Shown: positions 10,015 through 48,246, counted from the first letter of the stretch. The stretch is DNA of 64,000 bases from Alphaproteobacteria bacterium (GCA_037387885.1 JARRKQ010000003.1:11675-75674); one strand, 5' to 3'. The notes: generated from the sequence alone by a model not told the origin. Numbers and translations: made by a program.

Positions 10015-12006
10015 CTAGCGGAGCGGCCAGGGCAGATCGGTGAGGCTTTGCAGCAGCCCCGGCGGGAAGTCGCGGCCGTGCGTGTCGGCAAGCAGCAGGA
10101 TCATGCCCGTCGCGGCCGTAGTCAGCGTTGCGGCCGCCGGCCATGAGGCTCGCGCACGGTATCGCAGAAAAGCCAATAAAAAGAAAATGTTGGCGAGCAC
10201 GAAGCCGACCAGCGCCGTGCCCGCCAGCAATGCCCCGTACCAGGCGAACGCCGGCCACATGCCGATGCGATCGGCGGCGCCGGAATCTTCGCCGGTTATT
10301 TCCTCATCCCAATGGATGCGGTGCTCGGGCGGTGCGCGCCAGAGGCGGAGGATCACGAGGAGCGCCGCCGGCAGCGTGACGGCGGCGATGGCGAGCGGGA
10401 AGACCTTGTCGATCAGTGCTGCGATCGGCACCACGTCGATCAGCGCATAGGCCGCGAAGGCGGCGAGCACGGCGGCGAAGGCGATCTCAGGCCGCCGGTC
10501 GATGCGCGCCATGGCGTCCGGTTCGGCGGGCCCGCGCGCAATTCTTGACGACTGGCGCACGCCGAGGGCGACTGCCAGCACGATCAGGACCGCGAGGATC
10601 CCCACAGCCGGCGTCAGGAGATATTCAAGCCCGCGATGCATCGTGAATTGCGTCGCCTGGTAGGTGTAGACCTCGGCCGAATCGGCGAGCACGAAGCCGA
10701 TGAGGAAGGCCGGGCGCGGCCAGTCGAAGCGCTTCATGTAGAGCGCCAGGATGGCGATCGCGCCGAGCATGACGAGATCCCAGACCGATTGGCGCGACTG
10801 GAAGGCCGCAAAGAGGATGAACATCAGCATGAACGGCGCGATGAGCGGAAAGCGGATCCGCGTGAGCTGCGCCATTAGCGGCGAGGCGAGCAGGCAGAGC
10901 CCGGCCCCCAGCACGTTGGCGATCGCCAGCGACCAGATGATCGTGTAGGTGGTCGGCAGCTCGCCGCGCACCATGCCGGGTCCCGCCTCGAGGCCGAGCA
11001 GCACCATGCCGCCCAGAAACACCGCCATGCTGCCCGAGCCGGGTATGCCGAAGAGGAGCGTCGGCACGAGCCCCCCGCCCTCCTTCGCGTTGTTGGCGCT
11101 TTCCGGCGCGATGACGCCGCGAATGTCGCCCTTGCCCAGCATGTCGCGCTTCTTCGTCGTCTGGACGAGGTGGGCGTAGGCGATCCAGTCGACGACCGAT
11201 CCGCCGAGGCCGGGGATCACGCCCACGATCACGCCGATGAAGGCGCAGCGGATCGAGAGGGTGAGGTTCCGCCACCAGTCGAGCACGCCCTCGAGCCAGC
11301 CGCGGCCCAAGGTGGTCTCGCCGGCGATCGGCGCGTTGCGGCGGAGCAGCGTGATGATCTCCGGCAGGGCGAAGACGCCGAGGCCGACGATCACGAGTTG
11401 GAGGCCGTCGCCCAGATAGCCGATGCCGAAGGTCATGCGCTCGGTGCCCTGGGCCGGCGCGCTGCCGATGGCGCTCACGAGGACGCCGAGCCCGGTGGCG
11501 ACGACGCCCTTCATCAGGCTGCGCCCGGCGAGCACGCCCACCATGGCAAAGCCGAGGATCGTCAGCATCAGCAGCTCGGGCGTGCGGAAGAGTAGCACGA
11601 CCGGGCGCGCGACCACGATAAAGAAGGTGAGCAGCACAGCGCCGAAGAGCCCGCCCATCAGCGAGGAGACGAAGGCGGCGCTCAAGGCGCGCGCGGCGAG
11701 GCCTTGCTTGGCGAGCGGAAAGCCGTCGAGGACCGTCGCCTGGCTCGAGCTCGATCCGGGGATTCCCATGAGCACCGAGGTGAAGGTGTCCGAGGTCGGG
11801 ATGACCGCGACGAGGCCCACCATCATCGCCAGGCCCGAGACGGGATCGAGGCCGTAGAGGAAGGGCAGCAGCATCGCCAGGCCGGCGATGCCGCCCAGGC
11901 CTGGGAAGATACCGACGGCGAGCCCCAACAGCACGCCGGCGCCGAGATAGAGCAGATGCTCAGGCGAGACGAGCGTGCCGAACGCCTCTGCCATCGCCTC
12001 GAACAT
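10015..12006 (-). CDS. tctA: Tripartite tricarboxylate transporter large permease TctA with a C-terminal 4-TM TctB-like extension
   Basis: MFEAMAEAFGTLVSPEHLLYLGAGVLLGLAVGIFPGLGGIAGLAMLLPFLY... is a typical TctA N-terminus. It is 663 aa against about 500 as I recall for TctA. The last ~160 aa form four additional hydrophobic helices. Confidence 0.8.
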   Translation of the reverse strand: MFEAMAEAFGTLVSPEHLLYLGAGVLLGLAVGIFPGLGGIAGLAMLLPFLYGLDPVSGLAMMVGLVAVIPTSDTFTSVLMGIPGSSSSQATVLDGFPLAKQGLAARALSAAFVSSLMGGLFGAVLLTFFIVVARPVVLLFRTPELLMLTILGFAMVGVLAGRSLMKGVVATGLGVLVSAIGSAPAQGTERMTFGIGYLGDGLQLVIVGLGVFALPEIITLLRRNAPIAGETTLGRGWLEGVLDWWRNLTLSIRCAFIGVIVGVIPGLGGSVVDWIAYAHLVQTTKKRDMLGKGDIRGVIAPESANNAKEGGGLVPTLLFGIPGSGSMAVFLGGMVLLGLEAGPGMVRGELPTTYTIIWSLAIANVLGAGLCLLASPLMAQLTRIRFPLIAPFMLMFILFAAFQSRQSVWDLVMLGAIAILALYMKRFDWPRPAFLIGFVLADSAEVYTYQATQFTMHRGLEYLLTPAVGILAVLIVLAVALGVRQSSRIARGPAEPDAMARIDRRPEIAFAAVLAAFAAYALIDVVPIAALIDKVFPLAIAAVTLPAALLVILRLWRAPPEHRIHWDEEITGEDSGAADRIGMWPAFAWYGALLAGTALVGFVLANIFFLLAFLRYRARASWPAAATLTTAATGMILLLADTHGRDFPPGLLQSLTDLPWPLR

Positions 12007-12066
12007 CAGGGGGCGCGGGCCGAGGTGAGCATGGCTTGACGACGATTCCGGCAGCCCGCTTCGAGG

Positions 12067-13248
12067 CTATGCCTCGTATAGCCCCTTCTTCTCCATCCAG
12101 CCGGTCGTCACCGCCACCGACTCGGCGAGCAGCTCGGGCTGGCCCTTGTAGTAATGCGTGGCGCCCTTGATGACCTGGAACTCGCGGTCGGTCTGGGGGG
12201 CGGCATCGTAGACCAGCTTCGGATGGCTCGCGGGCGCTGCGTCGTCGGCGCTATTCTCGACCACCAGGAGCGGCACCGAGATGCGCCCGGCGCCGGTCGG
12301 CGCGTCGGCGCGCGAGTCGTCGACCGACCACTGCGAGAGCCAGCTGCGGAGCGAGCTGTAGCGGGCGAGACCGGCCGGGCCGACATTCGCGGTCTCCGGG
12401 TCGCCCATATAACAGGCGCCGGGCTCGCGGTCGTTGGGGTCCACCGTGGCGTCGACCCAGCGGAGATCGGCCATGGTGCGGTGGACGACGAAGGCGCGCT
12501 CGATCTCTTTACCGCCCGCCTTGGCGAGATCGTCGAGCCGCTGACGCACCCAGGCGGTGATGCGGCGCATCCGGGCCAGCTGGGCCTCGCGGTACTGCGC
12601 CTGATAGTCCGCCGTAAAGGGCGGCTTGTTGGGATTGTTCGGATTGTAAATGTCGAGCTCGACCTCGCGCCTGCCCGGCTCGAGCTCGTCGGTGACCGAG
12701 GGATCGAGCCATTCGGAGAGGGTCCGGGCGCGGCTAGCATGGGCGGCGATCATGACGACGCCGTCGGCCGTCGGCAGCTTCAGCGCCGTCAGATCGTAAG
12801 GGTCGCCCGCAGGGGTTTCGGTGATGGAGGGGTTCTCCGCCTCGCCCTGATAGAAGAGCGAGAGCGAGGCGCCGCCTGACCAGCCGACCAGCACGACCTT
12901 CTCGTAGCCAAGGACCTCGCGGGCATGGCGGATGTATTCGCCCATGTCGCGGGCGACCTTCTCCATGATGAGCGCGCTATCGTTCTTGGCGTAGCGCGAG
13001 CCGCAGCACATGACGTGGACGCCTGATTCGGCGAGCGCGGTCGGCATCGGCAGAAGCTGCAACGTCGTCGCCGGATGCATGAAGATGGTGACGGTCTTGG
13101 ACGGCTTGCCCTTGGGGCGCAGGAGCTGACCCTCGAGCCAGACCGAGCCCTGGGTGCCGCTGAACCCGTAGGTTTCGGCGGCCTTCAGGACTTCGTCGAA
13201 GCTGAGGATCAGGGGAATGCGCTCGATCTCGTAACTCTCTGCAGCCAT
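12067..13248 (-). CDS. Alpha/beta-fold hydrolase
   Basis: Nucleophile elbow VVLVGWSGGASLS (G-x-S-x-G). 393 aa, located between the TctC-like and TctA genes. Confidence 0.65.
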   Translation of the reverse strand: MAAESYEIERIPLILSFDEVLKAAETYGFSGTQGSVWLEGQLLRPKGKPSKTVTIFMHPATTLQLLPMPTALAESGVHVMCCGSRYAKNDSALIMEKVARDMGEYIRHAREVLGYEKVVLVGWSGGASLSLFYQGEAENPSITETPAGDPYDLTALKLPTADGVVMIAAHASRARTLSEWLDPSVTDELEPGRREVELDIYNPNNPNKPPFTADYQAQYREAQLARMRRITAWVRQRLDDLAKAGGKEIERAFVVHRTMADLRWVDATVDPNDREPGACYMGDPETANVGPAGLARYSSLRSWLSQWSVDDSRADAPTGAGRISVPLLVVENSADDAAPASHPKLVYDAAPQTDREFQVIKGATHYYKGQPELLAESVAVTTGWMEKKGLYEA

Positions 13249-32110: not shown

Positions 32111-33515
32111 ATGTGGAAGCCCCCCGAACGCATCCGATACGAGCCCAATCCGGGACCCTCGCCGAGCGCGGAGGACGCGGCCGGCTCGCTCTGGTTCAGC
32201 CCGGTATCGCTGGGCCCGATCACGCTCGAGCAGCGGACCTGGGTGCCGGCGATGGTGCCGTGGCGCTCGACCGACGAGGGCATCGTCACCCAAGATGTGC
32301 TCGACTGGTATGAGCGCTTCGCGCTCGGCCGGCCGGGCGGGTTGGTGATCGAGGCGACGGGGATCCGCGACGTGCCGTCGGGCCCCCTCCTCCGTATCGG
32401 CCACGACCGCTTCATTCCCGGTTTGCAGAAGCTCGTCGAGACGGTGAAGCGCGCGAGCGACGGGCATACCAAGCTCTTCATCCAGTGCATCGACTTCATG
32501 GCGATCAAGCGGCGACCCGATCCTTCGAAATTCTTCGAGCGCTTTCTCGTCATCACAGACCGGCACCGTGACGCTTTTGACGCCAAGGATTGACGAACGC
32601 GAGCTCGAATCCCTGCGCGTCGGCTACCGCGAGCGGGTGACCGACACGCATCTGCCCCATGTGCGCGACCTGCCGGAGACTATGCCGCCGCTCTTCGCCG
32701 CCGCTGCCCGGCGCGCGCGCGAGGCGGGGATCGACGGGGTCGAGCTGCACTACGCGCACGCCTATACGATGGCGAGCTTCCTTTCGCGCACCAACGACCG
32801 CGACGACGGCTATGGCGGCAGCAAGGAGGCGCGGGTGCGCCTGCCGCTGGAAGTATTCCAAACGGTGCGCAAGGAGGTGGGCGAGGACTATGCGGTCGGC
32901 TGCCGCTATCTCGCCGAGGACTGCATCGAGGGCGGCTCGACGGTCGACGACAGCTCATACTATGGCATTGAGTTCGCTCGCGCCGGCATGGACTTCCTCT
33001 CGCTCTCGCGCGGCGGGCGCTTCGAGGACGCCAAACAGCCGGGCATCGGCGAGGCCGCCTACCCCTATACCGGCCGCTCGGGCTACGAGTGCATGCCGGC
33101 CTTCATCTCCGACAAGATCGGGCCTTACGGCCGCAACGTGAAGCCGGGCGGCGCCATCCGCAAGGCGATCCGGGATGCGGGCTTTACGACGCCGGTGATC
33201 GTCACCGGCGGGGTCCATGGCTTCGAGCGCGCGGAAGCGATCCTGCAACGCGGCGAGGCGGACCTGGTGGGTGCGGCGCGGCAATCACTCGCCGATCCCG
33301 ACTGGTTCCTGAAAGTGCGGATGGGGCACGGCGACGAGGTGCGGGTCTGCGAGTACACGAACTACTGCGAAGGCCTCGACCAGAAGCACAAGCAGGTGAC
33401 CTGCAAGCTCTGGGACCGCCTCGACCTCGACGAGCCGGGCGTGACGCGCACTAACGATGGCAAGCGCCGCACCGTGCCGCCGCTCTGGGCGGGCTTGAAG
33501 GACGCGGCCGAATAG
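32111..33515 (+). pseudogene. Old-Yellow-Enzyme-family NADH:flavin oxidoreductase split by a frameshift
   Basis: Track ORF 32111..32593 carries the N-terminal part (...VPAMVPWRSTDEGIVT..VLDWYERFALGRPGGLVIEATGI...). ORF 32568..33515, in the +1 frame, carries the rest (...GIDGVELHYAHAYTMASFLSRTNDRDDGYGGSKEARVRLPLEV...). The two overlap by 26 nt. One protein of about 465 aa is restored by a 1-nt correction near 32560..32593. Confidence 0.7.
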
Positions 33516-39261: not shown

Positions 39262-40701
39262 ATGGGCCACGCCAAGACGAGCGCGGCGCGGAAAGGGTTC
39301 GCCGCCCTGCCCTCCGTCGACCGTGTGCTGGGCTGGCCGGCGGTGGCAGCGCTCGCCGCGACCTACGGGAATGCGGCGACGCTCGAGGCGGTGCGCGCGG
39401 CGCTCGACGAAGGACGGGCGGCGATCGCGGGCGGCACCGGCTTTGCCGGCGACGGGGCGCTGACACAAGCCGTCGCGGCTCGCCTGGAAGCGCGGTTCGC
39501 GCCGCCCTTGAGGCGCGTCTTCAACCTGACCGGCACGGTGATCCACACCAATCTCGGCCGCGCGCCCTTGGCCGATGAGGCGATTGCCGAGATCGCGGCA
39601 GCTGCGGCGCAGCCGGTGAACCTCGAATTCGATCTCGGCAGCGGTCGGCGCGGCGACCGGGACGACCTGATCGAGAACCAGATCTGCCGGCTGACCGGCG
39701 CCGAGGCCGCGACCGTGGTCAACAACAATGCGGCGGCCGTCCTGCTCGTGCTCAACACGCTGGCGCGGCGGAAGGAGGTGCTGGTCTCGCGCGGCGAGCT
39801 TGTCGAGATCGGCGGGGCGTTCCGCATTCCCGACGTGATGGCGCGGGCCGGCGCCAAACTGCACGAGGTCGGCACGACCAACCGTACGCACCGGAAGGAT
39901 TTCGAAGCCGCGATCAGCCCGCGCACGGCCTGTTTGATGAAGGTGCATACGAGTAACTACGAGGTGCGGGGCTTCACCAAAGCCGTGCCGGAGGCGGAGC
40001 TGGCCGCGCTGGCCCACGCGCACGACCTGCCCTTCGTGGTCGATCTCGGCAGCGGCATGCTCGTCAACCTCGAGGATTTCGGCCTGCCGCACGAGCGCAC
40101 GGCGCGCGAAACGCTGACCGAAGGCGCCGATCTCGTCACCTTCAGCGGCGACAAGCTGCTGGGCGGCCCGCAGGCGGGCATCATCGCCGGCCGCGCCGAT
40201 CTGGTCGCCAAGATCAAGCGCAATCCGATGAAACGGGCGCTCAGGCTCGACAAGCTCGTGATCGCGGCGCTCTCGGCGACCTTGCGGCTCTACGAGGATC
40301 CCGACGGTTTGCGCGAACGCCTGCCGGTGCTGCGGCTGCTGACGACGCCGGCTGACGAGATCGCGGCACGGGCCGAGCGGCTACAGCCAGTATTTGCGAA
40401 AGCATTGGACGGCGTCGCGAGTGTCGAAGCCGTGGCCTGCAAGAGCCAGATCGGCAGCGGCGCCCTGCCCGTCGATCTCCTGGAAAGCACCGCGCTGGCG
40501 ATCCGGCCGGCGGGCGCGCGGAAAGGTAAAGGCGGCGGAAAGGCGAATGCCTTGGCGGCGGCGTTCCGGGCGTTGCCGGTTCCGGTGATTGGGCGGGTGC
40601 GCGAGGGCGCGCTGCTCTTCGATCTGCGCTGCCTGGAAGACGAGGCCGGGTTCGTGGCGCAATTGGGCGCGCTCGACCTGTCGGGGCTCGCGCCGAAATG
40701 A
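39262..40701 (+). CDS. selA: L-seryl-tRNA(Sec) selenium transferase
   Basis: LPSVDRVL..., [40 protein letters not shown], and PLP lysine context [13 protein letters not shown]. Confidence 0.9.
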
Positions 40702-42659
40702 TCATCGCCACCGCCGGCCATGTCGACCACGGCAAGACCTCGCTCTTGAAGGCACTGACGGGGGTCGATGCCGACCGCCTGCCCGAGGAGAAGAAGCGCG
40801 GACTCACCATCGATCTGGGCTTCGTTTACGACGACACGATCGCGCCCGGCACGGTGATCGGCTTCGTCGATGTGCCGGGGCACGAGCGCTTCATCCACAA
40901 CATGCTGGCGGGCGTGACCGCGATCCGCGGTGCGATGCTGGTCGTCGCCGCCGATGACGGGCCGATGCCGCAGACGCACGAGCATTTGGATATTCTCGAT
41001 CTGGTCGGCATCGAGACCGGGTTCGTCGCGCTCACCAAGATCGACAAGGTGGATGCGGAGCGCGTCACCGAGGTGACCGCGGAGATCGAGGCGATGCTGG
41101 CGGGCACGCGTCTCGCCGGTGCACCGATCTTTCCGGTGTCGTCGGTTGACGGTAGCGGTGTCGCGGACATTGCCGCGCATCTGCGAGGCTTGGCGGAAAG
41201 CGAAAAACGGGCGCCACCGGCGGGCAATTTCCGGCTCGCGGTCGACCGCTCCTTTACCGTCGCGGGCGCGGGCCTGGTGGTGACCGGGCCGGTCAGCGCC
41301 GGGCAGGTGCGGACGGGTGACACGGTCGTCCTCTCGCCCGACGGCCGCGAGCTCCGCGTGCGCGGGTTGCGGGCGCAGGACCGGGCGGTCAAGGAAGCGG
41401 TACTCGGCGACCGCTGCGCCATCAACTTGGCCGGGCGCATCAGCAAAGAGGAGATCGCGCGCGGCGACTGGATCGTCGCAATACGTGCCCACGCGCCGGT
41501 GCGTCGGATCGATGTGGCGCTCCGTGTCCTTGGTTCGGAGGACCGCGCGCTCAAGCACTGGACGCCCGTGCATGTCCATCACGGCACGGCGGACGTGATG
41601 GGCCGGGTGGCGCTGTTGGAGGAGAAGGCCATCGAGCCGGGCGGGCAAGGCCTTGCGCAGTTGGTATTGGACGCGGCGCTCTGCGCCCGCGCGGGCGACG
41701 CCGTGATCATCCGCGATCAATCGGCGCGGCAGACCATGGGCGGCGGTCGGGTCGTCGACCCGTTCTCGCCACGGCGCGGCCGGGCGCGGCCCGAACGCCT
41801 CACCTGGCTGCACGCCCTGTGCAATCCGGATCGAGATGCGGCGCTGCAGGCTATTCTCGATGCGTCGCCCGGCGGCGCGCCGCTGCAGACGCTAGAAGCC
41901 GCCTGGAATTTGACGGCCGCAGAGGCCGAAGCGCTGCACGCCAAGGCGGATGTCTGTTGTACAGGTCAGGACGAAGTCGTTGGTCTGACGAAGGCACATC
42001 GCGACGCCCTCGCTTCGGCCATTCTCACGGCGCTTGAGCGGCTGCACCGTGCGAACCCCAATGCGGGCGGTGTGAACGAGGCGCATCTGGCGCGCGCCCT
42101 TCCGTTCCGCGCCCGGCCGGCGGCCTTCGCGCATGTCGTGGGCGAGCTCGTCGCCCAAGGTGAGATCGTGCGCGCCGGCGCCGTGCTGCAGCGACGAGGC
42201 TTCGCGGCCAGACTATCGGCGGCCGACGACCGGGACTGGCGACGTGTCGAAGCGGTGATGAACGCTGCGGCGGACCGGCCGCCGACCATCTTCGAGATCG
42301 CCGAGGACCTCGGCCTGCCGCAGAACCAGGTCGCGGGGCTGTTGGCGCGGACGGCCAAGCTGGGCCTGACCGCGCGGGTGTCGTCGAACCGCTACATGAC
42401 GCGGGCAGGATTGCGGACATTGGCGGGCATCGCCGAAACCGGCGCGCGCGGATTGCCCGGTGGGCGTTTCAGCGTCGCCGCCTTCCGCGACTGGTCGGGG
42501 ATCGGCCGCAATCTCAGCATCAAAATCCTGGAGTTCTTCGACAAGGTGAAGTTCACGCGGCGCCTCGGCAACGAGCGCGAGATCCTGCGCCCGGCTGCCG
42601 ACGTGTTCGGCGCGGGCGAGGCTGCCCCTGCCCCTCAAGAGCCCGTCAAGGCGGGCTGA
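40698..42659 (+). CDS. selB: Selenocysteine-specific translation elongation factor
   Basis: [52 protein letters not shown], and a long C-terminal winged-helix region. ATGA overlap with selA. Confidence 0.9.
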
Positions 42660-42702
42660 ATGCCTTGGACCTCGACGGGGCGGCCATGCTAGCCAGAGAG
42701 AC

Positions 42703-42798
42703 GGAGGAGGATCGGTTCCCGGTGGGCCGCGCGGGCTTCAAACCCGTTGGGACGCGCCAGGCGTGTCTGGTGGGTTCGACTCCCACCCTCTTCCGCCA
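42703..42798 (+). tRNA. selC: tRNA-Sec (anticodon UCA)
   Basis: GGAGGAGG-AT-CGGTTC..GGGCCG-C-GCGGG-CTTCAAA-CCCGT-long variable arm-TGGGTTCGACTCCCA-CCTCTTCC-G-CCA. Features: 8-bp acceptor stem, 6-bp D stem, UCA anticodon in the loop CUUCAAA, long extra arm, encoded CCA. Confidence 0.9.
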
Positions 42799-42816
42799 CT
42801 TCCCGCGACCCTAGCC

Positions 42817-45030
42817 ATGCAGAACGACACGCCGGTCAAATGCGACATCGTGCTGATCGGCGGCGGCCATGCGCATGCCGCAGTGCTGAAGAGCTTCGGC
42901 ATGAAGCCCGAGCCGGGGGTGCGGCTCAATCTGATCTCGCCGGGCTCGCTTACGCCCTATTCGGGGATGCTGCCGGGCTATCTCGCCGGGCATTACACGC
43001 TGGAAGAAACGCATTTGGACCTGCGCGCCCTGGCACGGTTCGCCGGCGCACGCTTCTACCAGACGGCGGCGACCAGCCTCGATCTCGCCGCCGGCACCGT
43101 CCTCTGCGGTGACCGGCCGCCGGTCGCCTTCGATCTGCTCAGCATCGATATCGGCTCGACGCCCAGCGAGCACGGGATCGCGGGCGCCGAACGTTCGATC
43201 CCGGTGAAGCCGGTCGACCGCTTTCTCGCCCGCTGGGACGAGGTCGAGCGGCAAATCGTGGCCGATGGCGGGCGGCACCGGCTGGTCGTCATCGGCGCGG
43301 GTGCCGGTGGAACCGAAACCGCGTTGGCGCTCGATTTCCGGGCGCGTCAGGCGCTGAAGCAGGCCGGCAAGCCCGCGAACGGGTTCGAGGTTGCGATCGT
43401 CGCGCAATCGGCAGAGCCGCTCGAAACACACGGCGCCGGAACACGGCGGCGCATGCGGAAAGCGATCGAGCACGCCGGGATTGCGTTCCACGGCGGCCAT
43501 TCGGTGAAGGCCATCGAGGATGGCCGGATCGTCTGCGAGCCCGCGATCGATTTGCCGTTCGATAGTGTCGTGCTGGTGACGCCGGGGTCGGCGGCGCCCT
43601 GGCTTGCCAGTACAGGCCTCGCGCTCGACGAGCGCGGCTTCATCCGCGTGCACGACACGCTGCAGTCGGTGACCGATACACGCGTCTTCGGCGCCGGCGA
43701 CACTATCGCCTTCGAGCCGCGCGCGCTTCCGAAGAGCGGCGTCTATGCCGTGCGCGAGGGGCCGTTCCTGGCGACGAGCCTGCGCGCGCTTGCAACCGGC
43801 GGAACCCCGCGCGCCTACCATCCTCAGCGTCGGACCTTGGCGCTGATCTCGATGGGGAAGAAGCGCGCGGTGCTGTCCTACGGGGCCGCGTCGGTCGAGG
43901 GCGACCGGGCCTGGCGCTTCAAGGACTGGATCGACCGGCGCTGGATGCGGAAGTACCAGGAGCTGCCGGAAATGGACGGCGGCCAGGACGACGGTGACGA
44001 CGAGCCGATGCGCTGCGGCGGCTGCGGCGCCAAGGTGCCGGCGGATGTATTGAAAAGCGCGCTGGCGACGATCGCACCGAACCAAAGTCCGAAGACACGA
44101 AGTGTCCTCGTAGGGCTCGAGGCGCCGGACGATGCGGCTGTGATCGTTCCGCCGCCAGGCAAGGCGCTGGTGCAGACCTTCGATCAGTTCCGCGCCTTCA
44201 TCGACGACCCCTACCTCTTCGGCCGCATCGCTGCCAATCATTGCCTGGGCGACATCCATGCGATGGGGGCCGAGCCGGCCTCGGCGCTCGCCGCGGTCAC
44301 CCTGCCCTATGCCGAGCCGGAGAAGATGGGCCAGGACCTCAAGCAGCTTCTGGCGGGTGCTCTGGCGACGTTCAAGCTGGAAGGCGTAGCGCTGATCGGC
44401 GGGCATACCGGCGAGGGCGCCGAGTTGATGATGGGCTTCACCATCAACGGCTTCGTCGATGAGGCGGCGATGCTGCGCAAGGGCGGCCTCAAGCCGGGCG
44501 ATGCGATCATTCTGACGAAGCCGCTCGGCACCGGCGCGCTGCTCGCCGCCGACATGCGCTACAAATCGGATGGGCGCTGGATCGACGCAGCGATCGAGAC
44601 GATGCTGCAATCGAACGGGCCGGCCGCCGAGATCGCCCGCAAACACGGGGCAACCGCCGCGACCGACCTCACCGGCTTCGGCCTCGCTGGGCACCTGATC
44701 GAGATGGCCGAGCCGGCGGGGGTGACCGTGACGATCCGACTGGACGATGTACCTGTGCTCAAAGGTGCGCTGGATGTGATGGCGGATGGGATCGTGAGCT
44801 CGTTGCAGCCCGACAATGAGCGCAACGCCGGGCTCGGCGCTACGGCGAACAACACCAGGCGCCCGATTCTGTTCGACCCACAAACGGCGGGCGGGTTGCT
44901 GATCGGCGTTGCCGCGGAAACGGCTGAGGCCTGCCTCGCCGATCTGCGCGAAGCAGGCTTCACCCAGGCCGCGGTAATCGGCGAGGTCAATGCCGAGAAA
45001 AGCGCCGGGCCTCTTGTCGTCGCCGCCTAG
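42817..45030 (+). CDS. selD: Fusion protein: N-terminal FAD/NAD(P)-binding pyridine-nucleotide-disulfide-oxidoreductase-like domain + C-terminal selenide, water dikinase (SelD, Cys type)
   Basis: Starts at ATG 42817 (the track ORF start 42763 overlaps the tRNA). N-terminal DIVLIGGGHAHAAVL and LVVIGAGAGGTE Rossmann motifs. From about aa 398: MRCGGCGAKV (SelD glycine-rich loop with Cys, not Sec), then DDAAV, FGRIAANHCLGDIHAMGA, and the PurM-like C-terminal half. Confidence 0.85.
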   Translation: MQNDTPVKCDIVLIGGGHAHAAVLKSFGMKPEPGVRLNLISPGSLTPYSGMLPGYLAGHYTLEETHLDLRALARFAGARFYQTAATSLDLAAGTVLCGDRPPVAFDLLSIDIGSTPSEHGIAGAERSIPVKPVDRFLARWDEVERQIVADGGRHRLVVIGAGAGGTETALALDFRARQALKQAGKPANGFEVAIVAQSAEPLETHGAGTRRRMRKAIEHAGIAFHGGHSVKAIEDGRIVCEPAIDLPFDSVVLVTPGSAAPWLASTGLALDERGFIRVHDTLQSVTDTRVFGAGDTIAFEPRALPKSGVYAVREGPFLATSLRALATGGTPRAYHPQRRTLALISMGKKRAVLSYGAASVEGDRAWRFKDWIDRRWMRKYQELPEMDGGQDDGDDEPMRCGGCGAKVPADVLKSALATIAPNQSPKTRSVLVGLEAPDDAAVIVPPPGKALVQTFDQFRAFIDDPYLFGRIAANHCLGDIHAMGAEPASALAAVTLPYAEPEKMGQDLKQLLAGALATFKLEGVALIGGHTGEGAELMMGFTINGFVDEAAMLRKGGLKPGDAIILTKPLGTGALLAADMRYKSDGRWIDAAIETMLQSNGPAAEIARKHGATAATDLTGFGLAGHLIEMAEPAGVTVTIRLDDVPVLKGALDVMADGIVSSLQPDNERNAGLGATANNTRRPILFDPQTAGGLLIGVAAETAEACLADLREAGFTQAAVIGEVNAEKSAGPLVVAA

Positions 45031-45077
45031 CGCATCATTTTTCAGGACTGGTTTGTTCCGACCACGATGGTGCCGCG

Positions 45078-45716
45078 ATGCGCGACGTAGACGAATTGGT
45101 GGACGGCTACCGCCGCTTTCTGGCCGGCCGGTACGAGAAAGAGGCCGCGCTCTATAGCGAGCTCGCCGAACAGGGCCAGGCGCCGAAGGTGATGGTGATC
45201 GCCTGCTGCGACAGCCGCGCCGATCCCGCGGCGATCTTCGACGCGCGGCCGGGCCAGCTCTTCGTGGTGCGCAATGTCGCCAATCTGGTGCCGCCCTTCG
45301 AGCCCCACGGCGACTATCACGGCACCAGCGCGGCACTCGAGTTTGCGGTGAACGGGCTCGGCGTGGAGACGATCCTGGTGATGGGCCACGGCCGTTGCGG
45401 CGGCGTGCGCGCCTATCTCGACGGGCTCTATGAAGCCGAGCCACCACGCGGCTTCATCCAGCGCTGGATGTCACTTTTGAAGACGGCGCAGACCGAAGCG
45501 TTGCGCGCGGCGGGCGACCAGCCGATCGAGGCGCAGGCGAAGGCGCTCGAATTCGCCTCGGTGCGCCATTCGATCGACAACCTCCAGACCTTTCCCTTCG
45601 TGAAGGACCGGGTGGCCGACGGCCGGCTGCGCCTGCGCGGCGGCTATTTCGACATCGCCGATGGGCGCCTGCTGGCGCTCGATCCTGAAAGCGGGGCTTT
45701 CAGCTCTGTCGACTGA
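45078..45716 (+). CDS. Beta-class carbonic anhydrase
   Basis: VMVIACCDSRADP...VVRNVANLV...MGHGRCGG, the zinc ligands C-x-D-x-R and H-x-x-C. Confidence 0.85.
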   Translation: MRDVDELVDGYRRFLAGRYEKEAALYSELAEQGQAPKVMVIACCDSRADPAAIFDARPGQLFVVRNVANLVPPFEPHGDYHGTSAALEFAVNGLGVETILVMGHGRCGGVRAYLDGLYEAEPPRGFIQRWMSLLKTAQTEALRAAGDQPIEAQAKALEFASVRHSIDNLQTFPFVKDRVADGRLRLRGGYFDIADGRLLALDPESGAFSSVD

Positions 45717-45736
45717 TCTGGGTCGACTGATCCGGG

Positions 45737-46849
45737 TCAGGCCTTGGCCGGTTCCGGCGTCTCTCCGAACGCATTGATGCCGAGCTGGTCGCGCATGCCC
45801 TCGGTCATTTCCGCCTTGTCGTCCTCCAGCGGGATGCCGGTGGAATCGGCGACGCGGTCGATGGCGTTGAAGAGCGCAGCGACCCCCGCCGCATCCGCCA
45901 AGGCCTCGCCGCCCATGGCCTCGATCACAGCCGCGCGGGCGGCATCAAGCCTGGCCGGATCGGCGCCGACCGCCGCTTCGGCGAATTCGAGCAGGACGCC
46001 CGCGTTCGGGATGCCGCTTTCGTCACCGCTCTTTCCCAGCAGTGCGCTTAGATCGTAGTCGTCTCCGGAATGTTCGCCGCTCGCACGGAGCAGCACCGCA
46101 TGGCTGGTGGTTCAGTAGAGACACTGGTTGAGGGCGGAGACCCGGCCGGCGATCATCTCGATCTGGGCGTGGCTGATGGCGCGGTACTCGGTGCCGAAGT
46201 CGCGCATCTGATCGCCGCGCAGATAGAGCGTGTTCGCCATCTCCCAGAAGCTGCGCGCCGTCGCCGGCACCAGCGTGAGCGCGCGGCGGATATGCGCGGC
46301 GCTGCCCGGATAGAATTCGCGCTGGAGCGGGCCGTCGTGATCGGGATCGAGCGTCGGCACCCAGGCCAGCTCGATATTGAGGTGCTCGGGCGTCTCCGGG
46401 CTCGGCGCGCCGTCCTGCGCGTCCGGAATCTCCGGTGCGTCCTGGCCAATGCCGCGGCAAAAGGTGTCGATGCCGACGACGCTGACGACGACGCCGATCA
46501 GCTCGACATATTCCCTGGGCGAGATACCGCTGCTGGTGACCTCGCGGAACCAGCGTTCGGAAAGCCGGCCCGGATCGCTCATGACCCGGTGAATGATGTC
46601 GACCCAGACCTCCGGGAGCGCGCCCAGATGGTTGTGCTCACCGTCGACAGCAAAGGGCGAGATCGCGGCCTTGCGTTCTGCGCACAGGGCGCAGCCGGCG
46701 ACGTTTCGTGCTTCGGCCGCGATGGCGGTGCGCTGCTCGGCGGTCAGCCAAGTTCCCGGCTCGCCGATCCGCGCCCAGACGTTCGGCAGCGCCGCCGCAA
46801 CCTCGTCGCGAATCGGAACCGGCGCAGCCTCAAAAGATAAGGTGCTCAT
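45737..46849 (-). CDS. Candidate selenoprotein: two-domain CMD/AhpD-like protein (about 370 aa) with in-frame UGA at 46114..46112
   Basis: Track ORFs 46112..46849 and 45737..46096 are in the same frame, separated only by TGA + 5 sense codons. Joined reading: ...HAQIEMIAGRVSALNQCLY-U-TTSHAVLLRASGEHSG..., which gives the AhpD/CMD motif C-x-x-C-x-x-x-H with TGA at the second Cys. The N-terminal domain has its own CALC motif. Confidence 0.7.
46082..46102 (-). promoter_or_regulatory. Candidate bacterial SECIS hairpin for the AhpD-like gene
   Basis: RNA CAUGCGG-UGCUGCU-CCGUGCG. Pairs are C-G, A.C mismatch, U.G, G.U, C-G, G-C, G-C, with a 7-nt loop that starts 17 nt after the UGA and has G at loop position 2. 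The stem is weak and no folding was computed. Confidence 0.35.
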
Positions 46850-46887
46850 ATGAGACGCGGCCTCCTGTCAGCTCAGTGACGAATTCC

Positions 46888-46899
46888 ATACGATCGTAT
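46888..46899. promoter_or_regulatory. Perfect 12-bp palindrome ATACGATCGTAT in the divergent spacer between the two candidate selenoprotein genes
   Basis: Read directly in spacer 46850..46997. Confidence 0.35.
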
Positions 46900-46997
46900 C
46901 GTGCCTATTCGCCCCGAACAACGGTGTCGGCGTTGCAATCCGCGCGCGACGCAGGCACAGTTGGCGTTCCTGCGAGCCATTTCACTGGAGCCGCCTT

Positions 46998-47468
46998 TTG
47001 TCAGAGAAACTTGGGATCGGCGCGACGTTTCCGAAGCTAACGCTCAAGCTGGTCGGTGGCGGAACGCTCGATCTTCCCGAAGGGCTCGACGCCAAATACC
47101 GCGTCATCCTCTTCTACCGGGGCCATTGGTGACCCTACTGCCGCCGTCAGTTGGACGGCTTCGAAGAAAATAGGGAAGCGCTCGAAGCGAAGGGCGTCAA
47201 GATCGTCGCCGCCAGCGTCGATGACGAGGAGAAGGCCGGCGAGATCGCGGCCGGCAAGGGCTTTGCCTTCGGCTACGGCGTGACCCGCGAAGATGCGGAC
47301 AAGCTGGGCTCGTGGTGGGAAGAGCGGCGCGGCATCATCCAGCCGTCGGAGTTCCTGCTCAATCCCGAGGGCAAGGTGATGGCCTCGAGCTACAGTGACG
47401 GGCCGATCGGACGCATCGACGCCGCCGACGTGCTGAAGGTGATCAACTTCTACGAGTCGAAGAAGTAG
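46998..47468 (+). CDS. Candidate selenoprotein: peroxiredoxin-like / redoxin (AhpC-TSA fold) protein with U-x-x-C motif, in-frame UGA at 47130..47132
   Basis: My translation from TTG 46998 (GGAG 8 nt upstream): MSEKLGIGATFPKLTLKLVGGGTLDLPEGLDAKYRVILFYRGHW-U-PYCRRQLDGFEENREALEAKGVKIVAASVDDEE...LLNPEGKVMASSY.... The track lists only the 3' part (47151..47468). FYRGHWCPYC is the usual family motif, and here the first Cys codon is TGA. Confidence 0.75.
47143..47159 (+). promoter_or_regulatory. Candidate bacterial SECIS hairpin for the Prx-like gene
   Basis: GCCGUC-AGUUG-GACGGC: a perfect 6-bp stem and a 5-nt loop with G at position 2. The loop starts 17 nt after the UGA. Confidence 0.5.
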
Positions 47469-47550: not shown

Positions 47551-48246
47551 ATGGCCAGCACCCCCGAACCGCCGTCACCCTTACGACTGGGGCTCGTTTC
47601 GGGGGCGACCATTGCCTGTTTCGGCGCCGTGCTTTTCCTGCCGGCGGGACGGCTCGACTGGTTCGCTGGCTGGCTCTATCTCGCGATCGTCGTTGTCTAC
47701 TTCGCCGCCAATTACGTCTATCTCAACCGCGTGAACCCCGAGCTGATCGCCCATCGCATGCGCATGGGCAAGGGCACCAAGCGCTGGGACAAGGTCTGGC
47801 TCTGGCTGAACACGCCCGTTTTCCTCGGCATCCATGTCGTCGCCGGGCTAGATGCCGAACGCTTCGGGTGGTCGCAGATGCCGGGATGGCTTTGGCCGGT
47901 GGGGCTTGCGGTGTTCGTTGCGGGGAGCGTGCTGGTCAGCTGGTCGATGGGCGTGAACCCGTTCTTCGAGAAGACCGTACGCATCCAGAGCGAGCGCGGC
48001 CATCGGGTCATCGACACCGGCCCGTACCGCTTCGTCCGCCATCCAGGCTATCTCGGGTTCTTCGGCTGGCTCGTTTCCACGCCGTTGCTGCTCGGCTCGT
48101 GGTGGGCCTTCGTGCCCGCGGCGCTCTCGCTTTTCTCTTTCATTGGGCGCACGGCGCTCGAGGACCGGACGCTGCGGCGCGAGCTGACGGGCTATGAAGA
48201 CTATGCGCGCCGCGTCCGCTACCGGATCCTGCCAGGGGTTTGGTGA
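47551..48246 (+). CDS. Membrane methyltransferase of the isoprenylcysteine carboxyl methyltransferase / PEMT-like family
   Basis: About 5 TM. C-terminal motif ...HRVIDTGPYRFVRHPGYLGFFGWLV...ALEDRTLRRELTGYEDYARRVRYRILPGVW is typical of ICMT/DUF1295-type enzymes. Confidence 0.7.
   Translation: MASTPEPPSPLRLGLVSGATIACFGAVLFLPAGRLDWFAGWLYLAIVVVYFAANYVYLNRVNPELIAHRMRMGKGTKRWDKVWLWLNTPVFLGIHVVAGLDAERFGWSQMPGWLWPVGLAVFVAGSVLVSWSMGVNPFFEKTVRIQSERGHRVIDTGPYRFVRHPGYLGFFGWLVSTPLLLGSWWAFVPAALSLFSFIGRTALEDRTLRRELTGYEDYARRVRYRILPGVW

Follow-up and report, generated by a model that had tools for sequence, protein, structure and literature searches.

Which proteins does a selenocysteine (Sec) decoding machinery serve when the genes that encode it are not accompanied by a gene for formate dehydrogenase (FDH)? 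This question is raised by a block of genes (positions 39262-47468) in a 64-kb stretch of DNA from an alphaproteobacterial genome, hereinafter the window, in which the complete Sec decoding machinery is encoded close to a divergent pair of genes with in-frame TGA codons, one for an AhpD-related protein and the other for a peroxiredoxin-like (Prx-like) protein. In Alphaproteobacteria, Betaproteobacteria and Pseudomonadales, selABC is flanked by fdhA, whose product has been reported as the sole selenoprotein (PMC1794560); in cultured Alphaproteobacteria, the fdoGHI genes form a cluster with selABC in which the selC gene often lies inside selB (PMC8124441). The block described here probably is a native Sec-trait cluster of an uncultured alphaproteobacterium, with two redox selenoprotein clients that likely form a selenol/thiol relay and are linked to the machinery via co-dependence.

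Two predicted selenoprotein genes

The AhpD-related gene (46849-45737, minus strand) encodes a protein of 370 aa that is a full-length member of the NCBIfam family NF041238, 'alkylhydroperoxidase-related (seleno)protein' (466.2 bits against a cut-off of 175, residues 13-362), an assignment absent from the first-pass annotation of this DNA. It contains a single in-frame TGA at 46114-46112 (minus strand), within the predicted active site C243-L-Y-U246-T-T-S-H250. The Prx-like gene (46998-47468, plus strand; 156 aa; PF00578, 69.8 bits), which encodes a predicted cytoplasmic thioredoxin-fold protein, starts with TTG preceded by GGAG 7 nt upstream, and its single in-frame TGA, at 47130-47132, falls within the motif W-U45-P-Y-C48. 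The first-pass annotation had proposed both genes as selenoprotein candidates, and sequence comparison bears this out: both TGAs are identified as Sec codons, and the two genes as genuine selenoprotein genes, because cysteine (Cys) homologs align at these positions, coding conservation continues beyond them, TGA is universal in the 80 related loci analyzed, and conserved hairpins follow.

The Cys homolog P0013 of the AhpD-related protein has NQCHYC-TTRHALLLRASGEHSG where the window protein has NQCLYU-TTSHAVLLRASGEHSG, and the Cys homologs P0121, P0122, P0132 and P0157 of the Prx-like protein have WCPYC where the window protein has WUPYC. Among the 18 full-length representatives of the AhpD-related family at 50% identity, 16 carry Cys in the canonical motif, P0362 has CFSC, and P0265 has neither Cys nor Sec. 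In both genes, protein conservation runs through and past the TGA. Scanning one genome per species, we detected relatives of the AhpD-related protein in 297 loci; the counts of loci given here come from the best 80 of these 297. TGA occupies the Sec site in all 82 AhpD-related copies of the 80 loci (paralogs included) and in 21 of the 21 Prx-like genes that neighbor the AhpD-related gene in related loci. The signature of NF041238 is a C-x-x-U-T motif that contains Sec, replaced by Cys in rare homologs, and this is the pattern found here.

Minimum-free-energy folding of the sequence after each UGA was no better than that of shuffled sequence (z from +0.8 to -0.5); because folding energy is thus uninformative, conservation and covariation across homologs were used to assess putative selenocysteine insertion sequence (SECIS) elements. 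In the AhpD-related gene, a hairpin supported by its fold and by conservation, GCUGCUC-CGUGC-GAGCGGC (46094-46076, minus strand), starts 17 nt after the UGA. In the consensus of 65 distinct sequences, CUGCUC-CGUGC-GAGCRG, conservation reaches 90% or more in 15 of the 17 core columns (22-38), synonymous positions among them; the six core pairs are formed in 387 of 390 alignment cells, and the outermost pair is C-G in 48 cases, U-G in 12, A-U in one and G-C in one. The hairpin of the Prx-like gene, GCCGUC-AGUUG-GACGGC (47143-47159, plus strand), starts 10 nt after the UGA and is supported by its fold and by covariation: across 20 sequences with the consensus GCCGNC-AGUUR-GNCGGC, all 120 cells are paired, and one pair covaries (G-U in 10, U-A in five, A-U in four, G-C in one), with a score that was reached by none of the 500 shuffles and by no slid control. 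Both hairpins have the features of bacterial SECIS elements, namely a conserved stem-loop located approximately 10-20 nt past the UGA and a small, G/U-containing apical loop (CGUGC and AGUUG, respectively), and both are predicted to bind SelB.

A scan of the window for same-frame coding on either side of a TGA returned the AhpD-related gene along with three ordinary gene junctions and missed the Prx-like gene, with its short N-terminal part. Public gene callers cut nearly all homologs at the TGA, which results in entries of 245 aa and 105 aa. Six full-length homologs of the Prx-like protein (P0123, P0125, P0136, P0138, P0143 and P0148) have tryptophan (Trp), in the sequence WWPYC, at the position of Sec in the window protein; most likely, the TGA was read as Trp by gene callers that used genetic code 4 or 25, an annotation artifact that hides selenoproteins. 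Given that nearly all database entries of both families are either cut at the UGA or contain Trp at this position, loci of this kind help to correct the annotation.

Sec decoding genes and the absence of formate dehydrogenase from the window

All four components of the bacterial Sec decoding trait, SelA, SelB, tRNA-Sec and SelD, are encoded in the block, each scoring above the respective curated cut-off, and the genes selA, selB, selC and ndh-selD are contiguous and arranged head to tail on the plus strand. The extent of the block and the layout of this array, of the beta-carbonic anhydrase gene and of the divergent pair of TGA-containing genes that come after it were already given in the first-pass annotation and proved accurate base for base. 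The selA gene (39262-40701, plus strand) encodes an L-seryl-tRNA(Sec) selenium transferase of 479 aa (TIGR00474, 576.7 bits against a cut-off of 267.9; PF03841, PF12390), and selB (40698-42659, plus strand) encodes a Sec-specific elongation factor of 653 aa (TIGR00475, 417.3 bits against a cut-off of 242) that consists of GTP_EFTU, Beta-barrel_SelB and winged-helix SelB-wing_2/3 (PF09106, PF09107) domains. The two open reading frames (ORFs) share positions 40698-40701, the ATGA overlap noted previously. The gene for tRNA-Sec, selC (42703-42798, plus strand), also was correctly placed in the 157-nt gap between the selB stop (42659) and the selD ATG (42817), 18 nt upstream of the latter; it is located 44 nt downstream of the former and was recovered by both ARAGORN (anticodon TCA, that is, UCA) and Rfam (RF01852, 72.3 bits with a gathering score of 47). 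In the ARAGORN fold, the acceptor stem consists of 8 bp and the T stem of 5 bp, which is the bacterial 8/5 geometry; the variable arm is long, G73 is present, and the CCA end is encoded. Nesting of selC inside a C-terminally extended selB, of the type described by Mukai (2021), is not observed, given that the tRNA begins only at 42703, downstream of the selB stop at 42659. The 4-nt overlap of selA and selB, together with the 44-nt and 18-nt gaps, suggests that selA, selB, selC and selD, perhaps along with the carbonic anhydrase gene, are most likely carried on a single transcript that would be processed to release the tRNA.

The selD gene encodes a fusion protein, a feature that had not been recognized in the earlier reading of the locus. 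The 2.2-kb ndh-selD gene (42817-45030, plus strand; 737 aa) has scores well above the cut-offs for both TIGR03169, 'Nterm_to_SelD' (413.7 bits, cut-off 310), and TIGR00476 (290.6 bits, cut-off 125), contains the Pfam domains Pyr_redox_2, AIRS and AIRS_C, and has CxxC in the SelD loop, the combination that characterizes the Ndh-SelD fusions. The look-alike model TIGR04369, 'fusion_not_SelD', scores 437 on the product, under its cut-off of 700. The N-terminal part (approximately aa 1-385) is an NDH-2-like FAD/NAD(P) flavoprotein domain, with type II NADH dehydrogenases, NDH-2 (YjlD), as the nearest solved structures, whereas the C-terminal part is a Cys-type SelD with the active-site loop C-G-G-C-G-A-K, seen as 'MRCGGCGAKV' in the translation. 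The Ndh-SelD family has been described previously; its CxxC motif is universal, it accounts for approximately 40% of the Cys-type SelDs in ocean metagenomes, and the role of its Ndh domain is reported as unknown (PMC2398784). Compared with the Ndh-SelD of aquatic bacteria (Zhang et al. 2008, PMC2398784), the window protein has the same NADH-dehydrogenase-like N-terminal fusion and the same Cys-type CxxC and shows no difference of substance; here, the gene directly follows tRNA-Sec. The selD frame is open from 42550 onward, across the entire tRNA-Sec, and contains a GTG at 42763; the domain model is better matched by the ATG at 42817.

In agreement with the first-pass annotation, neither Pfam scans of approximately 50 ORFs nor a tblastn search with the E. 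coli FdhF as the probe detected FDH or any other molybdopterin oxidoreductase in the 64-kb window. The probe had been validated on plasmid records, among which it detected fdhF, fdnG and nitrate reductases. When applied to the related loci (1.5 Mb), the same probe yielded a single distant homolog, in locus L049, unlinked to sel genes, and no FDH beside sel genes. The hallmark of the fdoGHI-selABC clusters, a gene for the Sec-containing FDH alpha subunit adjoining selABC, is found neither in the window nor at the sel genes of the related loci. With the selABC clusters that include fdhA or fdoGHI in Alphaproteobacteria, Betaproteobacteria and a subset of Gammaproteobacteria (Zhang et al. 2006, PMC1794560; Mukai 2021, PMC8124441), the window shares the order of selA, selB and selC, the translational coupling between the first two of these genes, and the presence of a gene for a client selenoprotein alongside, such that the published logic of co-transfer and co-maintenance applies. 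In contrast to these clusters, the clients in the window are thiol-redox selenoproteins rather than FDH, selD is included in the form of the Ndh fusion, and selC is unnested, with a 44-nt gap.

Recurrent linkage of the AhpD-related gene with the Sec machinery

The 80 related loci all come from uncultured alphaproteobacterial assemblies labeled Rhodospirillaceae, Xanthobacteraceae, Hyphomicrobiaceae, Paracoccaceae and others, and the best genome relative shows 91% identity. These loci carry flanks of up to 10 kb on each side, with full 10-kb flanks in 49 of the 80. At least one of selA, selB, selD and tRNA-Sec is located within 10 kb of the AhpD-related gene in 26 of the 80 loci and in 19 of the 49 with full flanks. 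A Prx-like gene adjoins the AhpD-related gene in 21 of the 80 loci, and 14 loci combine the Prx-like and the sel linkage. In 13 of the 80 loci, the gene for Ndh-SelD is the direct neighbor of the AhpD-related gene, in the tail-to-tail orientation; in the window and in L081, the two genes also are tail to tail, with few genes in between.

Three arrangements are apparent. In the first (the window, L001-L004 and L081), the Prx-like and AhpD-related genes are divergent, and selD, selC, selB and selA converge on the pair. The second (L009-L019) is the same except that the Prx-like gene is missing. In the third (L021, L029, L031, L061, L084 and others), selA, selB, selC, the AhpD-related gene and the Prx-like gene are co-directional, with tRNA-Sec sometimes located only 38-125 nt upstream of the AhpD-related gene. 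For a random gene in genomes of 3-6 Mb, the size of the complete assemblies among these, location within 10 kb of one sel locus is expected with a frequency of approximately 0.5%. The observed linkage in 26 of the 80 loci, in three gene orders, therefore argues against chance and for repeated retention of the connection between the Sec machinery and the AhpD-related gene. Clustering of the neighbors around the 80 AhpD-related genes, which is noisy owing to antisense ORFs in this high-GC DNA, singles out only the Prx-like family and the sel genes.

Predicted properties of the AhpD-related and Prx-like proteins

The AhpD-related protein appears to be a distant relative of the AhpD core and, judging by score, is not a member: both core models fall below their cut-offs (TIGR00778, 27.1 against 27.8; TIGR01926, 51.5 against 81.8). 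In the C-terminal half, CxxU-xxx-H aligns to the CxxC-xxx-H of the AhpD-core structures 3c1l and 6k40. The N-terminal half (residues 1-180; 46849-46310, minus strand) shows no Pfam match and contains the invariant C53 along with the nearly invariant C56, H72 and H87, which suggests a second redox center or a Cys2His2 metal site. In the structure model of the Cys homolog P0013, this half is helical and confidently predicted (pLDDT above 90), and a tandem AhpD-like fold is only hinted at by the Foldseek matches of the model. A 2026 review identifies NF041238 as the family described under the name 'hypothetical protein 1' in the Sargasso Sea selenoproteome (PMC13188914, PMC1088965). The window protein shares with this family the full-length match, the CxxU motif, the SECIS hairpin and the alphaproteobacterial and marine-type distribution, and differs from it in having the motif CLYUT rather than the name-giving CFYUT. 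A tblastn search of 72,556 plasmids with the AhpD-related protein returned no homolog. Pairs of paralogs of the AhpD-related gene are present in L020 (8215-9701, convergent) and L078 (10001-11851, tandem); each of these paralogs has its own in-frame TGA and hairpin.

The Prx-like protein looks like a thioredoxin/ResA-type UxxC protein rather than a canonical peroxiredoxin. The catalytic P-x-x-x-T-x-x-C pattern and the Arg of the peroxiredoxins (AhpC/BCP) are lacking in this protein. In a BLASTP alignment with the E. coli BCP, FYRGHWUPYC aligns with FYPKAMTPGC, with Pro replaced by R, Thr by U and Arg by the family-invariant Q115, Cys alone being kept. The closest solved relatives are ResA-type thiol-disulfide oxidoreductases, and U occupies the position of the N-terminal (nucleophilic) Cys of the ResA CxxC. 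The PF00578 domain, UxxC in place of TxxC, and CxxC in the Cys homologs are the features that define the Prx-like UxxC family of thiol:disulfide oxidoreductase selenoproteins (PMC1088965, PMC13188914), and all of them are found here. The protein shares the AhpC/TSA domain and the thioredoxin-like UxxC with the published Prx-like selenoproteins, including 'Prx-like 1' of the Global Ocean Sampling study (PF00578; PMC2398784), and is placed at the level of the family as a whole, which comprises the published subfamilies Prx-like 1, 2 and 3.

The first-pass annotation had likened the pair to the mycobacterial combination of the AhpC peroxidase with its reductant AhpD. The two pairs do share an AhpD-type CxxC-xxx-H-like motif in one partner and an AhpC/TSA Pfam domain in the other; nevertheless, the analogy is weak because the Prx-like protein lacks the Pro, Thr and Arg of the peroxiredoxins and resembles ResA. 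The window pair differs from the mycobacterial one also in that the AhpD-related partner contains an extra N-terminal CxxC/His domain and is twice as large as the solved AhpD-core proteins that it matches (180-200 aa), and in that there are no DlaT or Lpd genes nearby in the window.

A putative selenol/thiol relay and the alternatives

Taken together, these observations suggest the following scheme. Insertion of Sec would depend on SelB in complex with Sec-tRNA(Sec), guided by the hairpin after each UGA, and the AhpD-related and Prx-like proteins would most likely constitute a selenol/thiol redox relay that acts on a hydroperoxide or disulfide substrate. One partner would reduce the substrate, and the other would re-reduce that partner by selenylsulfide exchange; the thioredoxin-fold UxxC (Prx-like) protein is more likely to be the reductant of the AhpD-related protein than the reverse. 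A common redox role has been proposed for co-located Prx-like and AhpD-like selenoproteins (PMC13188914, PMC2398784). As to the linkage, the AhpD-related gene would be useless without the machinery, because the family is almost obligately Sec-containing, and the machinery would be kept only in the presence of a client, so that co-dependence and co-inheritance would hold the two together. This linkage would parallel the location of fdhA next to selABC in cultured Proteobacteria, and selABC has been proposed to travel with a neighboring client selenoprotein gene (PMC1794560).

Several observations weigh against this scheme. The relay and the redox roles are predicted from sequence. In the structure model of P0013, residues 244-341, in the catalytic half, have pLDDT below 50, and the Foldseek matches of this model to Sestrin2 and AhpD(-core) proteins are not significant (E approximately 0.4-2). 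The AhpD-related gene converges on the unit formed by the sel and carbonic anhydrase genes and hence is not co-transcribed with it, and consensus scans for promoters and terminators gave no signal that would define transcription units and nothing above the shuffled expectation. No Prx-like neighbor is present in 59 of the 80 loci, and in 54 of the 80, there is no sel gene within the available flanks (up to 10 kb per side, full in 49). The related loci share phylogeny, such that the counts overstate the number of independent events. Finally, other selenoprotein genes, FDH included, may lie elsewhere in the source genome. The earlier proposal of a dedicated Sec-dependent redox module is accordingly retained in part: the linkage recurs in 26 of the 80 loci and in three orders, but 'dedicated' is too strong a word because 54 of the 80 loci have no sel gene in the available flanks.

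Among the competing explanations, the one that fares best, which we nevertheless consider unlikely, is that the adjacency reflects lineage-specific synteny without a functional connection and that the Sec trait is kept mainly for another selenoprotein, for example, an FdhA encoded elsewhere. The FDH search of the source genome covers the 64-kb window, cultured Alphaproteobacteria use Sec chiefly for FDH-O (PMC8124441, PMC1794560), and the convergent orientation of the AhpD-related gene and the large number of loci without a nearby sel gene are readily accommodated by this explanation. Against it speak the linkage in 26 of the 80 species-level loci and in three arrangements, including the co-directional order selA-selB-selC-AhpD-related-Prx-like of L021 and L061, and the lack of FDH neighbors at the sel genes of the related loci, whereas in cultured relatives, fdoGHI is located directly beside selABC (PMC8124441, PMC1794560).

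It is quite improbable that the pair is an accessory arm of the Sec machinery, a relay that feeds selenium to the NDH-2-like SelD fusion, although, if this were true, the cluster would be a self-sufficient cassette for selenium acquisition and decoding in FDH-less aerobic Alphaproteobacteria. We deem it highly improbable that the two proteins reduce selenite, selenotrisulfides or oxidized selenium, or recycle selenide, and hand the reduced selenium to Ndh-SelD. The tail-to-tail arrangement of the AhpD-related and Ndh-SelD genes in 13 of the 80 loci, repeated with few intervening genes in the window and L081, is compatible with such selenium supply, as are the selenol/thiol redox motifs in both proteins and the lack of a known role for the Ndh domain (PMC2398784). 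However, there is no selD within 10 kb in the co-directional loci L021, L029, L031 and L061, most of the AhpD-related copies are located far from any sel gene, and the sequence relatives of the two proteins are AhpD-core antioxidant and ResA-like proteins rather than known selenium carriers. The remaining possibility, that the two selenoprotein genes are artifacts, with in-frame TGAs that act as ordinary stops or stem from sequencing errors or pseudogene lesions, as the truncated entries produced by public gene callers (245 aa and 105 aa) might seem to imply, is effectively refuted by the identical TGA in all 82 and all 21 copies from related genomes, the conservation across the TGA with Cys in homologs and conserved or covarying hairpins downstream, the complete Sec machinery next door and the curation of NF041238 as a selenoprotein family at NCBI.

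The reading of the block as a Sec-trait cluster with thiol-redox clients fits well with what has been published. The AhpD-like/AhpD-related CxxU and Prx-like UxxC selenoproteins have been described (PMC1088965, PMC2398784, PMC13188914), and so has the Ndh-SelD fusion (PMC2398784). Genes for Prx-like and AhpD-like selenoproteins have been reported to be co-located, with a shared redox process suggested (PMC2398784, section 9; PMC13188914, 'Selenoprotein operon'). Thiol-redox selenoproteins, not FDH, dominate some selenoproteomes (PMC1088965, PMC2398784, PMC13188914), and FDH is scarce in aerobic marine selenoproteomes (PMC1088965, PMC13188914). Thus, all structural elements of the locus are already published, and the locus is a good, fairly ordinary example. 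The element that we add, and that was not found in the literature compared, is incremental: the frequency with which NF041238 genes are located beside the Sec machinery and the three gene orders in which they occur. Nevertheless, the locus is a clean, fully resolved Sec-trait cluster with thiol-redox clients instead of FDH, in agreement with the published view that aerobic, marine-type bacteria retain Sec for redox proteins. A family that nearly always contains Sec adjoins the Sec machinery in about one third of the species-level genomes examined, and the AhpD-related/Prx-like pair offers a tractable route to the function of abundant, uncharacterized selenoproteins.

Neighboring genes and minor features of the locus

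The block is flanked by housekeeping genes, namely smpB, dapA, a gene for an SLT-domain transglycosylase, relA/spoT, era and recO, in a context that is syntenic in the closest relatives. The GC content and skew are flat across the block, with the same GC as in the flanks, and synteny with L001, L002 and L081 is conserved; the block therefore looks native and chromosomal. A genomic island was considered and rejected given the flat GC and skew and the syntenic flanking genes.

Only the closest relatives, L001, L002 and L081, have the gene for beta-carbonic anhydrase (45078-45716, plus strand; 212 aa; PF00484, 151 bits) in the same place, and it recurs in two of the 80 loci; because of this narrow conservation, it is probably a passenger rather than a part of the module. 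Two copies of an 11-bp direct repeat, GTCGACTGATC, separated by 4 nt, are present at 45708-45733, spanning the carbonic anhydrase stop codon and the 20-nt gap to the convergent AhpD-related gene. This repeat is missing from the same junction in L001, L002 and L081 and may be a small duplication or a recombination scar. The 148-bp divergent intergenic region between the two selenoprotein genes (46850-46997), which is expected to contain their putative promoters, includes a perfect 12-bp palindrome, ATACGATCGTAT (46889-46900), the core of which, CTACGATC, is also present in the corresponding intergenic regions of L001, L002 and L081; judging from its sequence, the palindrome could be a -10-like element or an operator.

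Some of the related loci contain additional genes in the vicinity of the cluster. In L081 (80% identity), genes for OsmC and Pyr_redox_3 proteins are inserted between the AhpD-related gene and the carbonic anhydrase gene (11250-13088), and in L084 (3706-4502), a member of the known selenoprotein family UGSC (PF24696) is encoded near selA, along with a Pyr_redox_2 fragment; these extra genes fit the theme of a redox and selenoprotein neighborhood. In L048, the 8 kb that separate selC from the AhpD-related gene contain catabolic genes rather than further selenoprotein genes.

Directly after the Prx-like gene, the window encodes an ICMT/PEMT-family membrane methyltransferase (47551-48246, plus strand), which is kept in this position only in L001 and L002. 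Its match to the methanethiol S-methyltransferase MddA is below the threshold (18.5 bits, cut-off 270), and methylation of thiols or selenols by this protein is pure speculation. Farther upstream, a gene for an old-yellow-enzyme-like protein (Oxidored_FMN; 32111-33515, plus strand) appears to be split over two frames (32111-32593 and 32568-33515), which could reflect a frameshift, a pseudogene or a sequencing error.

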